A stretch of 64,000 bases of DNA from Acidobacteriota bacterium (GCA_965205505.1 CBDBHB010000007.1:224001-288000); one strand, 5' to 3'; positions 54,055 through 58,063 are shown, numbered from the stretch's first letter. Notes: generated from the sequence alone by a model not told the origin. Program-made: numbers and translations.

Positions 54055-56250
54055 TCACCCGGTCTCCGTCACCCGCAGGGAGAGCAGGCGCACCGCCTGT
54101 TGTTCCGCTGCCACATCGACGATCTTCAGCTCGACCAGGTATTGACCCGGATCCAGATCGGGCAACGGCAGCACACCCTCGTGGATACCCGGGTAGGCAA
54201 GCGGCAGGGCCGTTAGCGAAACCGTTGCGATGGGTGCGTTGACCCCCTCGCGACGAACCGTGAGCGCGACCTCCGGGCTGGCCGCACCACTGACCTGCAC
54301 GCTCGTGGCAAGCTGAAGGCCGGCACGAACGGCCGAGGTCACCAGCGGCCGGAGCATCCTGGCTTCGGTGTCCAGGGCAACGAGCATGGGATCGGCGACG
54401 AGCCAGCGATCCTGGCTAGGCGGCACCTCGACCTGCAGCCTGGCGGTGCCGATGCGATCGCCCACTTCCTCACCCACGAACATGCGCACGTCATAGACAC
54501 CCGGGTCCACCTGGAATTGCCTCACGTAGTTAAAGAATCGTGCCGGGTTCGCTGTGGACGGCGTTCCTTCCGCAGCCTCAGGTGCCACTGTCGTATGGAA
54601 CTCTCCGCGCAGCTCGCCGACACTACTGTAGGCGACGGCGTGCACCTGGAAGCGCGAGATGCCGAGTCGCTGAACCATCTGCTCGTCCATCCCCGATTCA
54701 GCGTCGCCGGTCCCGAAGGCGGGCGCCCAGCTGCCGCGGACCGTCTCCTCCTGTCCCGGCAAGCCGATGACCAGGAAGATGCTCGAAGAGCCGTCTGCGG
54801 TGAATCGATGGAGCGCTTGCGCCGGCACAGGTCGACCCGCCACGGACCCCGGAAACGACAGTGCGGCAGTGACCTCGCGCTTGATCCGTTCCAAAGCCGG
54901 CTGCTCCCGGTACCCCGGGCGCGCACGCACTTCGGCGGCCGGAACGTCGACCCGGACCTGGATCTCGTGGTACTCGCCGTCCTCGTGAGGTTCCGGCGGC
55001 TCATAGAAGATCATGTAGAACTGCGTCGAGTCGACGTACTGCTCCTGGAAGGCGCGGTCGAGATCGGCCCAGCCGATGAACGATCGGCCTCCCGTGCTAG
55101 CCGCTACCTCCGCCAGTGGAGCCGTCAACTGGGCATACGCCGGGCGTATGTTTCGCCGCAGCGCCCTGCCCACCTGGTTATCTCCGACCGCTGCCCGGGT
55201 GCCCAGCGAACCGAGCTCCGAGATCGGTCGAGGGTCGATGGTGTAGATGCTGACGTTGCCGCTGTTGGCGGCCTCGATCAGAGTGGCCATCAGTTCGAGC
55301 GCCCTCTGGTCGGGCGATGACCAGGTTGTGAGGGTCGAGCTGCCCATACCCGCGGCCACGACCTCCTGCACTGTCGCGGCAAAGGCGCCGAAGGGTCCGC
55401 TTTCGGTGATCATGACGCCCGACGAGATCCACACCAGGGCCGTCCGGCCCTCCATGACCGAGAGGGCATGGGTAAGCTCCGTGAGCTGACGCAACGTGTA
55501 CCCGAGACGCTGTCGCGCCAGCTCGCCATCCCTCTTCGCCTTTTGCTCCGCGGCCCGGACCACTTCGCGGACTTTGTTCGACGAACTCCCAGGGCCGTTC
55601 AGTACAGCGAGCGCGGCCTTCATCATGGGGTCGTACTCGCGGCCTATGCGATCGAAGATCGAGTCGCTCGACGGCCCGGCGTCGATCACCAGCTGAGCAG
55701 CGTTCCGCAACGTATCTCGATCGGTGGTCAACGGTGCCAGCTGGCGCAGCGCACCGCCGTCGCCGAGCATGAACACGCTGCGCGGGACCGCCAGATCCCC
55801 CTCTCCCTCGAACAGATCTCGGAACGCCTCCGCCAGCTGTGGATAACCAACCCGATCAAGGCTCGGCTGATCGACGAAGTAGACGATTGCTCCGAGGGTG
55901 GCAGCGCTCCACATATCGGGAGTCGGCCCACTCGAGCCACGAGAGCCGACGCTCGTGACCCGTCCACTCTCCACGCGGACCAGCTGAACGCCGGTAATCT
56001 CCTGCACGACCCCGTCTTCGAGCAGGCGGAAATCCTCTGCTGTCAGGTCGTCGATGAAGTTGTCGTCGCCGTCGGTGACCACCGTGTCGACGCGGACGCG
56101 GGTGACGGCGGAGCGGAACTGCGTCGGCTCCTGCAGCAACAGGTGCCGGGCCTCAGCATGCGAACCAACGACGGCGACGGTCGACAGGCAAAGACACGCC
56201 GCCGTCAGCGCGAGCGCCTTGAAACGCGCCGAAACCAAGACTTTATCCAT
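54055..56250 (-). CDS. VWA domain protein (acidobacterial VWFA-related)
   Basis: Signal peptide; FRSAVTRVRVD.VVTD, DLTAEDF.LLEDG, GRTALVWISSG, YTIDPR, TGGR, RARPGY. The ORF-track extension to 56745 is IS antisense. Confidence 0.85.
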   Translation of the reverse strand: MDKVLVSARFKALALTAACLCLSTVAVVGSHAEARHLLLQEPTQFRSAVTRVRVDTVVTDGDDNFIDDLTAEDFRLLEDGVVQEITGVQLVRVESGRVTSVGSRGSSGPTPDMWSAATLGAIVYFVDQPSLDRVGYPQLAEAFRDLFEGEGDLAVPRSVFMLGDGGALRQLAPLTTDRDTLRNAAQLVIDAGPSSDSIFDRIGREYDPMMKAALAVLNGPGSSSNKVREVVRAAEQKAKRDGELARQRLGYTLRQLTELTHALSVMEGRTALVWISSGVMITESGPFGAFAATVQEVVAAGMGSSTLTTWSSPDQRALELMATLIEAANSGNVSIYTIDPRPISELGSLGTRAAVGDNQVGRALRRNIRPAYAQLTAPLAEVAASTGGRSFIGWADLDRAFQEQYVDSTQFYMIFYEPPEPHEDGEYHEIQVRVDVPAAEVRARPGYREQPALERIKREVTAALSFPGSVAGRPVPAQALHRFTADGSSSIFLVIGLPGQEETVRGSWAPAFGTGDAESGMDEQMVQRLGISRFQVHAVAYSSVGELRGEFHTTVAPEAAEGTPSTANPARFFNYVRQFQVDPGVYDVRMFVGEEVGDRIGTARLQVEVPPSQDRWLVADPMLVALDTEARMLRPLVTSAVRAGLQLATSVQVSGAASPEVALTVRREGVNAPIATVSLTALPLAYPGIHEGVLPLPDLDPGQYLVELKIVDVAAEQQAVRLLSLRVTETG

Positions 56251-56427
56251 GATCGAAGAGTACTTTGCGAACGACCCATGACACAGTGCCCTGCGACGGA
56301 TATCTGGCCAACCGGCTGGGCGGCATCTAGATGAGATGAGAAGGCCAACCTCCTGAACGCAGTAGCCTGACGGCTCTGCAAACGTTTCTTCAAACGTAAC
56401 GGGCTCGAAGCCCAAGGAGGTTGGCCG

Positions 56428-57470
56428 ATGACAAGTGTAACGATTGGACTGGACGTAAGCGACCGGTACAGCCGTATGTGCGTGCTCGACAGTAAGGGCA
56501 GGGTGATGGAGGAAGGGCGGGTGAGGACGAGCCCGGAGGGGCTGGCGAGGCGGTTCGGGTGCGAGGAGCCCGCTCGAGTAGTGCTGGAGGTTGGAACGCA
56601 CTCGCCGTGGATGAGTGAGCAGTTGAAGCAACTGGGTCATGAGGTGCTGGTGGCTAACCCGAGGCGGCTGAAGCTGATCTATGGCGAGCACGGACCGACC
56701 GGTTGGATGCCGAGCACCTGGCACGAGTGGGCAGAATGGACCCAAAGCTGCTTAAGACGGTGCAGCATCGAGGCAGACAAGCGCGAGCGGATCTAGCCGT
56801 GATTCGGAGCCGAGATGCTCTGGTAAAGAGCCGCACGCAGTTGGTGAGCCATGTGCGTGGTGCGGTCAAGTCGGCCGGTTGTCGTATTCCCAGGTGCTCG
56901 ACGCCGGCGTTCGCGCGCACCGCGCCAGAGCACATACCGGAGCGGCTCAAGGGAGCGCTCGAGCCGGTGCTTGAAACGATCGCCATGCTGACGGGCAACA
57001 TCCAGCAATACGAGCGTCAGATCGTGCAGCTGTGCCAGGGGCGATACCCGGAGACACAGCAGCTCCAGCAAGTGGCCGGGGTCGGAGCTCTGACCGCACT
57101 GGCGTATGTGCTGACGCTCGAGGAGCCGGAACGGTTCAATACCTCCAGAGCCGTGGGCCCGTACCTGGGACTGAGACCGAAGAAACGGCAGTCGGGGGAC
57201 AAGGACCCTGCGCTACGAATAACCAAGGCGGGCGACAAAATGCTCCGACGCCTGTTGGTGGGCTCGGCGCATTACATCCTGGGCCCCTTCGGGCCCGATA
57301 CTGAGCTCAGACGCTGGGGGCTCAAGCTGGCCGGACGCGGTGGTCCTCATGGCAACAAAAAGGCAGCAGTTGCTGTCGCCCGTAAGCTCGCCGTTGTGCT
57401 GCACCGACTGTGGCTGAGTGGAGACGAGTACGAACCGTTGCGCGCACCTGTAGAGGTTTCAGCAGCATGA
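56428..57470 (+). pseudogene. IS110 DEDD recombinase/transposase, frameshifted near 56690
   Basis: IGLDVS, VVLEVG, TDRLDA across the shift, GVG, YLGL.P...QSG, AVARKLA. Confidence 0.9.
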
Positions 57471-57499
57471 ACTAACTCGCAACCAGGAGGTCGGTAGGG

Positions 57500-57700
57500 C
57501 GACGCGACCCAACGGTTATCGATCTGACCGCCCGGTCCGGGCGACTGCGAAGGTCACTACGAGCTTCGAGCTCGGCAGCTAGATTGCAGCGCCTCGAATC
57601 GGGACGGACCCCAGAATGCACCGGACGACCTGAATCCTCGTCCACCAGAGTGCGAATAGGAGCATGGCGTGCAGATCGATTCTTCGCTGGCCACCACATT
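57500..57700 (+). ncRNA. Predicted bridge/seek RNA of the IS1111 element
   Basis: Stem CTGCGA/TTGCAG enclosing an internal loop AGGTCACTAC / GGCAGCTAGA capped by GAGCT-TCG-AGCTC; loop strands match the flanking target. Ends approximate. Confidence 0.7.
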
Positions 57701-57766
57701 GCCCTTGACCGAACTAGGCCTTCTCATAGAAGTGGCCTGAGTCAGAGGTTCGTTGCATATTGCTGG

Positions 57767-57866
57767 GACGAGATGGGGGCAAGCTCAAGGCGCGGAGAGG
57801 AAGGCGATGCAGTGGGTATCGTCGACGAGGCGCAACGCCGATATCGCCCGCAACTGCCCATCTGTC
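57767..57866 (+). repeat. Degenerate MITE-like palindromic repeat
   Basis: Core caaggcgc..gaggaaggcgat..atcgtcgacgag..gcaacgccg resembles the 15407/16074 MITE core; imperfect IR gacgagatggg/cccatctgtc. Confidence 0.55.
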
Positions 57867-57873
57867 CGGAGGA

Positions 57874-57972
57874 TGGCGGCGAAATCGGCCCGTCTGCGGC
57901 GTTGCTCCTCCTCGAAGATGGGCAAACATCGTCTCGTCGTCGCGCCTGGCATCCGGACCCATTTCGCCACCA
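57874..57972 (-). repeat. MITE-like palindromic repeat, inverted copy
   Basis: IR tggcggcgaaatcggcc / gacccatttcgccacca; reverse core ccaggcgcgacgacgagacgatg..catcttcgaggaggagcaacgccgcag. Confidence 0.6.
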
Positions 57973-58063
57973 CGATACGCAACGATCATCTGTTACAGGC
58001 CACTAGTTCGGCCGACGATGCACCACTGCCATGTTCTCTGAGAAGGCGAAGGGACTCCTCGAC

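Follow-up and report, generated by a model that had tools for sequence, protein, structure and literature searches.

Introduction

The closest described systems to the locus studied here are the IS1111-family elements ISEc11, ISPa11, ISKpn4 and ISPst6. According to the text of Siddiquee et al. (2024, PMC11187229), IS1111 elements encode a protein of about 340 aa, a DEDD transposase in these four, with the motif GL-P----SG, have 11-bp subterminal inverted repeats followed by terminal extensions of 7 bp and 3 bp, and carry a non-coding region downstream of the gene; in their seekRNAs the match to the top strand lies 5′ of the match to the bottom strand, and the two overlap. A second point of reference is the bridge RNA of IS621 and ISCro4 (Durrant et al. 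2024, PMC11208160; Hiraizumi et al. 2024, PMC11208158), described with two internal loops, one for the target and one for the donor, that devote one strand to each DNA strand. The strand order of IS621 is reversed compared with IS1111, and both of its pairings include the core (PMC11208160).

Here we analysed an element in a 64,000-nt stretch of an Acidobacteriota bacterium (GCA_965205505.1 CBDBHB010000007.1:224001-288000; hereafter the window), whose source genome comprises 5.98 Mb in 9 contigs. With the four IS1111 members, as their report presents them (PMC11187229), it shares the transposase type and motif, the repeats and extensions, the non-coding region 3′ of the gene, a top-strand match 5′ of the bottom-strand match with overlap at the insertion point, and one orientation per site; it differs in its target and in a left match of only about 4 nt. 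It also has a clear second loop that appears to track its own ends, which lies outside the target analysis given in that report. As far as the two IS621/ISCro4 papers describe (PMC11208160, PMC11208158), it resembles those bridge RNAs in having a target loop and a candidate donor loop with one strand per DNA strand, a core dinucleotide in both pairings, and a base beside the core that tracks the partner DNA, reminiscent of handshake guides. In contrast to them, its RNA lies 3′ and not 5′ of the gene, its loop strand order is reversed, its core is AG and not CT, and its subterminal repeats are long. Protein similarity to IS621 and ISCro4 is confined to the C-terminal domain (E 6e-9 and 6e-8), and every match among plasmid-borne IS110-family genes had <60% protein identity (best among the matches listed, 36%) and a generic name. 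The system is a further IS1111/seekRNA-type element, of a kind already known.

IS4321 and IS5075 reportedly target the terminal repeats of Tn21-family transposons, as Partridge and Hall are said to have described in 2003. Like them, the element in the window is an IS1111-family element with the end of another transposable element as its specific site; rather than lying inside the repeat, its site extends from the CTAG host duplication over the initial 6 bp of a MITE repeat. We conclude with high confidence that positions 56329-57730 hold an IS1111-family insertion sequence with a DEDD recombinase and a 3′ two-loop bridge/seekRNA that would read CT-AG-TGGCCT, mostly at MITE ends.

Results

Anatomy of the element

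Judged by its protein and its ends, the element is an IS1111-family insertion sequence (IS110 family, IS1111 group in ISfinder), as a sequence-only reading of the window had proposed from one copy; family profiles, repeats, extensions and the downstream non-coding region agree on this. The protein of intact copies (348 aa) scored 64.6 bits against PF01548 (cut-off 29), 62.3 bits against PF02371 (cut-off 21.3) and 205.5 bits against NCBIfam NF033542, "IS110 family RNA-guided transposase" (cut-off 140). It contains GLRPKKRQSG, which fits GL-P----S(T)G, and the S and G were invariant in protein alignment A1. With 348 aa the protein falls in the 330-350 aa range of IS1111 transposases, and with 11 bp the repeats fall in the family range of 11-13 bp. 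The architecture is AGATGAG plus repeat on the left and repeat plus AGA on the right (Table 1), with 260 nt of non-coding DNA 3′ of the transposase gene (57471-57730) versus 99 nt 5′ of it (56329-56427). Given the empty site CT-AG-TGGCCT, extensions of 7 bp on the left and 3 bp on the right lie beyond the repeats and no target is duplicated, the shared AG being assignable to either side; boundaries at 56329-57730 are therefore an exact fit to the IS1111 extension rule stated in PMC11187229. Insertion was both site- and orientation-specific, with 27 distinct sites, all CT/.../AGTG(G/A)CCT, in a single orientation.

Table 1 Features of the element, its predicted RNA and its target in the window
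Feature	Position	Strand	Details
Left target CT, last two bases before the core, of the MITE-flanking CTAG	56327..56328	+	Sole conserved left-flank bases; C in 25/27, T in 26/27 distinct left junctions
Insertion sequence	56329..57730	+	1402 bp in window copy, 1406 bp in intact copies; boundaries from 109 unoccupied CTAGTGGCCT versus occupied CT/AGATGAG...CATAGA/AGTGGCCT
Left terminal extension AGATGAG, 7 bp	56329..56335	+	First AG is the core copy; most relatives have AGATGNG
Left subterminal inverted repeat ATGAGAAGGCC	56336..56346	+	Perfect reverse complement of 57717-57727 (11/11); kept in relatives
Transposase gene, disrupted by loss of 4 bp after 56692	56428..57470	+	Frames 56428-56796 and 56703-57470; Pfam DEDD_Tnp_IS110, Transposase_20
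Predicted bridge/long seekRNA	57529..57669	+	Closed by CGCC 57529-32 / GGCG 57666-69; consensus of relatives
Target-binding loop (predicted), outer stem 5′ half (GGGCG.CUGC)	57539..57548	+	Pairs with 57586-57594; CG/UA/GC/AU exchanges in RNAalifold
Right target guide (predicted) AGGUCACU	57551..57558	+	Pairs with top strand AG+TGGCCT (57731-38): 7 Watson-Crick pairs and 1 G:U
Cap hairpin CGAGCU-UCG-AGCUCG	57560..57574	+	Hairpins of other sequence here in relatives
Left target guide strand (predicted) GCAGCUAGA	57575..57583	+	Sites match CUAG (57579-82) only; A57583 is the third base of the left end
Target-binding loop (predicted), outer stem 3′ half (GCAG CGCCU)	57586..57594	+	RNAalifold, structure count
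Second-loop 5′ strand GGACCCCAGAAU, candidate right donor guide	57606..57617	+	Only 3/7 pairs with AGATGAG in the window element
Second-loop inner stem and cap hairpin	57618..57653	+	Stem GCAC 57618-21 / GUGC 57650-53; cap GGACGA 57623-28 / UCGUCC 57638-43
Left donor guide (predicted) AUAGGAG	57656..57662	+	Equals right-end top strand ATAGAAG (57726-32) at 6/7; the mismatch gives a G.T wobble
Outward-facing -35-like TTGACC	57705..57710	+	20 nt from right end; TTGAC at most 16 nt from the right repeat in 57/63 relatives
Right subterminal inverted repeat GGCCTTCTCAT	57717..57727	+	11/11 complementary to 56336-46
Right terminal extension AGA, 3 bp	57728..57730	+	Empty versus occupied sites, relatives
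Right target: core AG + TGGCCT	57731..57738	+	31/32 right junctions; the remaining one TGACCT
MITE, 270 bp, left end is the target	57733..58002	.	CTAG on both sides: left copy split by the insertion sequence, right copy 58003-06

Copies in the source genome and the frameshift

BLAST returned 33 matches to the element in the source genome, 28 of them full-length (98.3-100% identity) and 5 partial. Ten of the 28 full-length copies, among them the one at G000 C7:9910-11325, have an uninterrupted 348-aa transposase frame. The frameshift that had been noticed in the window copy was confirmed, since ACAA is missing after 56692; the same four bases are absent from 12 of the 28 copies, the window copy among them, and present in 16. 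Because of the frameshift the N-terminal piece of the window copy falls below the Pfam cut-off (DEDD_Tnp_IS110, 26.6 bits), and Transposase_20 reaches 63 bits. With ten intact copies at hand, the repair of the ORF proposed in the sequence-only reading is unnecessary for a functional test.

The 4-bp deletion and six SNPs combine in nearly every way among the 28 copies (window 56692, 56432-33, 56832, 57131, 57691 and 57726). The many SNP backgrounds of the deletion suggest that the copies have undergone gene conversion with one another, or that the consensus of a 28-copy repeat was assembled with errors, so that the broken or intact state of any single copy is uncertain. The idea that the 12 frameshifted copies form one trans-mobilised lineage was rejected as unsupported, the deletion occurring on many SNP backgrounds. 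The predicted RNA region is identical across all 28 copies, save a 1-nt deletion in one.

Three 5′-truncated copies (G000 C9:311919-313151, C8:147545-148316 and C8:892028-892379) retain the RNA region and the right end, adjoining AGTGGCCT. Two pairs of copies (G000 C6:513837 and C6:423086; C6:13158 and C6:189948) have 50 nt in common on one flank and differ on the other, a pattern that would be consistent with copies recombining with each other or with flanking repeats that are duplicated. Sequencing runs (X1-X17) from 10 studies with several organism labels, two metatranscriptomes included, also contained near-identical copies of the element, and the main contig across the window insertion site in X1, X4 and X16 is the intact ACAA version.

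The insertion site and its core

Exact word counts in the source genome gave 109 unoccupied occurrences of CTAGTGGCCT (13.5 expected from composition), 2 of CTAGTGACCT and 87 of CTAGTGTCCT; occupied junctions were counted 31 times as TAGAAGTGGCCT and once as TAGAAGTGACCT. CTAGAAGTGGCCT had 0 occurrences in the 5.98 Mb. The 109 against 0 establish that the empty site is CT-AG-TGGCCT, entered as CT/AG-TGGCCT with the core AG, and that the AGA flanking on both sides is part of the element.

A different geometry had been proposed earlier, in which AGA is a core or duplication of 3 nt, the empty site is CTAG-A-AGTGGCCT (reconstructed in the sequence-only reading as CGGCATCT-AGA-AGTGGCCT) and the two guide matches abut. 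The window copy taken by itself can be read this way, since TAGA stands at both of its junctions and both loop strands are readable against CTAGA and AGTGGCCT. The genome counts speak against it, as do contigs that cover unoccupied sites, whose alignment with the window begins at 57731. Relatives differ in their right extension (GGA, AGA, AAG, GGC, GGG) and begin their left end with AG, so that the junctions share only AG; this geometry is almost certainly wrong. The preferred target derived from it, GGCAGCTAGAAGTGACCT, contains an AGA foreign to the target: its boundaries were off by 3 nt and the predicted target therefore does not exist, the guide matches overlapping on the AG core and not abutting.

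With AG as the core, the left flanks vary between copies as far as CTAG, and positions further upstream are variable. Right junctions read AGTGGCCT in 31 and AGTGACCT in 1 of 32 occupied junctions, a set that takes in partial copies and is not fully independent (distinct left flanks, n=27), and most run on into a dispersed repeat. At sites outside that repeat, flank conservation ends after TGGCCT, and contigs from other samples diverge from the window before 56327 and after 57738. The occupied sites comprised 31 TGGCCT, 1 TGACCT and 0 TGTCCT, versus 111 TGGCCT/TGACCT and 87 TGTCCT among empty ones (Fisher p=6.4e-8).

The element lands on the ends of a MITE

The dispersed repeat at the right flanks is the terminal inverted repeat (TGGCCTGTAACAGATGATCGTTGC...) of a MITE with terminal inverted repeats of about 30 bp and at least two subfamilies in the genome (TGGCCT... 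and TGTCCT...). With a search anchor that ignores the first 6 bases, 164 MITE ends were found, 151 of them unoccupied, and CTAG stood directly before 114 of these 151; paired ends had a modal spacing of 270 bp (27 pairs). Most insertion sites consist of the CTAG duplication and the terminal repeat of this abundant, approximately 270-bp MITE. As the MITE provides most of the 10-bp sites (CTAG duplication plus terminal repeat TGGCCTG), the insertion sequence lands on MITE ends.

The MITE ends also bear on whether AGTGGCCT might be the true right end of the element and not its target, with insertion at CTAG only. In favour of such a reading, the sequence follows all 32 right ends, those at non-MITE sites included. 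Yet at 69 of the 151 empty ends the MITE repeat itself opens with the hexamer TGGCCT, one copy has TGACCT, relatives with the same repeats and extensions carry unrelated sequence there that matches their own guide, and the rule of a 3-bp right extension would no longer hold. We consider this reading extremely unlikely, and AGTGGCCT is treated below as target.

A search of the source genome revealed no autonomous partner of the MITE: the sole end pair more than 700 bp apart encloses a 565-aa ORF without a transposase domain, and the single PF01609 match has no MITE-type repeats nearby. Short palindromes of the type TGGCCTGACTCAGGCCA, which look like two abutted MITE-like termini, also follow CTAG (for example G000 C6:378487 and C9:3038108). 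In the closest relative (G004), the orthologous left flank (90% identity) continues into unrelated sequence with neither MITE nor insertion sequence, so this genome supplies no empty site for the window insertion.

The predicted target-binding loop

The stem CUGCGA 57545-50 / UUGCAG 57584-89 encloses a 9x9 internal loop with the strands AGGTCACT (57551-58) and GGCAGCTAGA (57574-83); stem, loop and cap hairpin were found to be present and to fold as the sequence-only reading had described. A 76-nt hairpin containing them is predicted at -37.1 kcal/mol (z = -2.9; 2 of 200 shuffles equally stable), and the stability of the whole 260-nt non-coding region is unremarkable (z = -1.45).

The complementarity of AGGTCACT to AGTGGCCT at 57731-38 with one G:U, also reported there, holds. 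Pairing of the right guide is perfect for TGACCT and includes a U:G wobble with TGGCCT. A U in the guide opposite G or A, and not T, fits the occupied TGGCCT and TGACCT sites and the absence of TGTCCT among them. Comparison of the flanks of other copies with the loop had been set as a test of the RNA-guide reading, and all 32 occupied junctions, being TGGCCT or TGACCT, agree with the right guide. On the 3′ strand, CUAG corresponds to CT plus AG and pairs with the bottom strand, so that both guide matches overlap on the AG core. The site predicted from the guides is (GCAG)CTAG-TGACCT, and the site used is NNNNCTAGTGGCCT.

The left guide appeared to be used over a short stretch. The five bases 5′ of CTAG matched it at 1.81 of 5 positions at occupied sites (n=27) and at 1.64 of 5 at empty sites (n=107; p=0.28), and per-position matches upstream of CUAG were near composition. 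Left recognition is accordingly about 4 nt here, compared with 5-6 in relatives. The letters of the 9/10 match between GGCAGCTAGA and GGCATCTAGA (56322-31) that had been noted earlier are correct; its GGCA part is chance, only CT being conserved before the core, and with no detectable use of the upstream bases the match is partly fortuitous for the window copy. One left junction (G000 C8:914022) stands alone in having TTAG in place of CTAG; GCAG lies just 5′ of it and agrees with the stretch of the left guide that otherwise goes unused. This single case (n=1) gives a hint that a mismatch can be offset by additional pairing on the left.

Guides and targets change together in relatives

A search of 4 genomes of the same genus did not recover the element, and beyond its own genome the best match had 52% identity; matches at E<=1e-20 occurred in 13 of 101 genomes, its own included. 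A contig scan with a single protein query gave only 1 distant locus (43% identity), and a metagenome contig scan with a 4-protein alignment found 562 relatives among 600 stretches, of which 80 were kept (49-71% protein identity). In most metagenome relatives the repeats recur, the left end is AGATGNG, the right extension is GGA or AGA, and the right flank opens with AG. Their non-coding region follows one plan: GACUGCG, a variable stretch of 9 nt that ends in CU, a hairpin, AGA preceded by 5-7 variable nt, and UNGCAGCRCC; then a spacer, GGAcCCCAnnnUGCACC, a further hairpin and AGAGUGCGrAUrrrAGC..GGCG.

The fold was assessed on a MAFFT alignment of 20 sequences fitted to no structure, with a five-helix structure drawn from the window sequence and the alignment itself. 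In this fold 78% of cells were paired, compared with 32-48% when partners were slid, and two-sided changes occurred in 17 of 29 pairs; 0 of 500 shuffles reached the observed values. Together with the 76-nt hairpin, these counts bear out the fold that had been put forward for the downstream region. An Rfam scan of 56200-57900 (E up to 1) matched no family.

For the comparison of guides with flanks, 83 loci were reduced to 69 with both RNA anchors, 51 with both flanks with AG, and finally 42-44 guide groups. The left guide matched its own left flank over a mean of 4.18 contiguous bases, compared with 0.36 for the flanks of other elements (44 groups, p=7e-45), and the right guide formed 7.12 versus 4.08 Watson-Crick pairs of 9 with its right flank (42 groups, p=5e-24), p-values that are overstated because the elements are related and hence non-independent, and that come from a heuristic extraction. 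The earlier view of the loop as target-binding, with one strand for each DNA strand, is upheld by this covariation. Its RNA-guided account of the insertion site thus survives in the agreement between guide and site, and fails in the target that it named.

We also considered that the protein reads the MITE end directly, the loop complementarity being a by-product or the RNA having another role. The involvement of RNA in site choice is something we infer here, and the left guide adds little beyond CTAG, both of which leave room for such a reading. Guide and flank, however, change together in 42-44 independent guide groups with different targets, and dependence on seekRNA is described as experimentally shown for four IS1111 members (PMC11187229); recognition by the protein alone is therefore very unlikely, and an RNA-guided choice of site is preferred.

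A second loop that appears to track the element's own ends

The inner stem of the second loop was kept in 20 of 20 aligned sequences, with 3 of 4 pairs invariant and one two-sided change in a single sequence; its cap hairpin varies in the same alignment, with changes on both sides. The motif AU-rrr-AG that follows GUGCG equals the right end, running from the final two bases of the repeat through the 3-nt extension and the core. In 57 of 58 relatives, which between them have five different triplets, the triplet of the motif is the same as the 3-nt right extension. The sole exception is the window element itself, where AGG stands against AGA and would form a G.T wobble with the bottom strand.

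The 5′ strand of the second loop contains a triplet complementary to left-end bases 5-7, at 2.52 versus 1.71 of 3 (50 relatives, p=1e-9). In the left-guide strand of the target loop, the base after the core equals the third left-end base in 56 of 58 relatives, among which the four AGG cases may be one lineage; on our analysis this match recalls the handshake guides described for IS621 (PMC11208158).

Expression and the predicted circle junction

No sigma-70-like promoter was found in the integrated copy. The outward-facing TTGACC near the right end would be half of a circle-junction promoter, a type of promoter known for the IS1111 family according to PMC11187229. Joined ends would place GAAGAT 18 nt downstream of it, and since this -10 is weak (3 of 6 matches to TATAAT), the junction promoter remains putative. 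At the junction, ...CTTCTCATAGA would be followed immediately by AGATGAGATG..., a single AG being present and TGGCCT absent. Contigs of four runs contained no circle junction or excision joint, which is neutral either way because contigs drop rare forms. RNA-library contigs from two metatranscriptome runs cover 56511-57760 (X16) and 57016-57725 (X17); with DNA carry-over possible, this coverage does not imply transcription.

Just 5′ of TTGAC, a short hairpin of the type GGSCA-CCAC-rUyGSCC (57688-57703) is kept in most relatives. A C at 57691, which 10 of the 28 copies have, weakens it in the window copy.

Discussion

In the mechanism that we propose, the 3′ non-coding region would encode a two-loop bridge/seekRNA of about 140 nt. 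Its first loop would hold two target matches that overlap on the AG core, the element entering between CT and AG, and its second loop would recognise the joined element ends, AUAGGAG matching the right end and CCC... matching the left end weakly. Production of this RNA, its binding by the recombinase and the direction of the reaction are presumed from sequence features. The window copy would be disabled by its 4-bp deletion, with 10 other copies intact. The candidate donor-binding second loop, the MITE end as target and the 10 intact copies had all been missed when the window was read by itself.

Tentatively, and with slightly more doubt than conviction, we regard the element and its metagenomic relatives as an undescribed IS1111-type clade with a fixed AG core and a complete two-loop 3′ bridge RNA. 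In the element studied here left recognition would have shrunk to CTAG, so that it may colonise every CTAG-flanked MITE end, whatever DNA lies beside it; published target logos or ISfinder lists might already include the clade.

In an uncultured bacterium of soil type, the locus offers an IS1111-type system that has multiple copies and is well resolved: element, target, guides and candidate donor loop are readable from the sequence. More than 40 related guide/target pairs amount to natural reprogramming experiments. For engineers of bridge RNAs and seekRNAs, the clade supplies candidate orthologues that have an AG core and a 3′-encoded RNA, and the element itself is an example where some 4 nt seem to suffice on one side. 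For genome biology, one mobile element uses the insertion scars of another as landing pads. All of these points are unsurprising in kind. If the reading of a shrunken left recognition is true, the element would parasitise the scars left by the insertion of another transposon and would be a natural instance of programmability on one side only.
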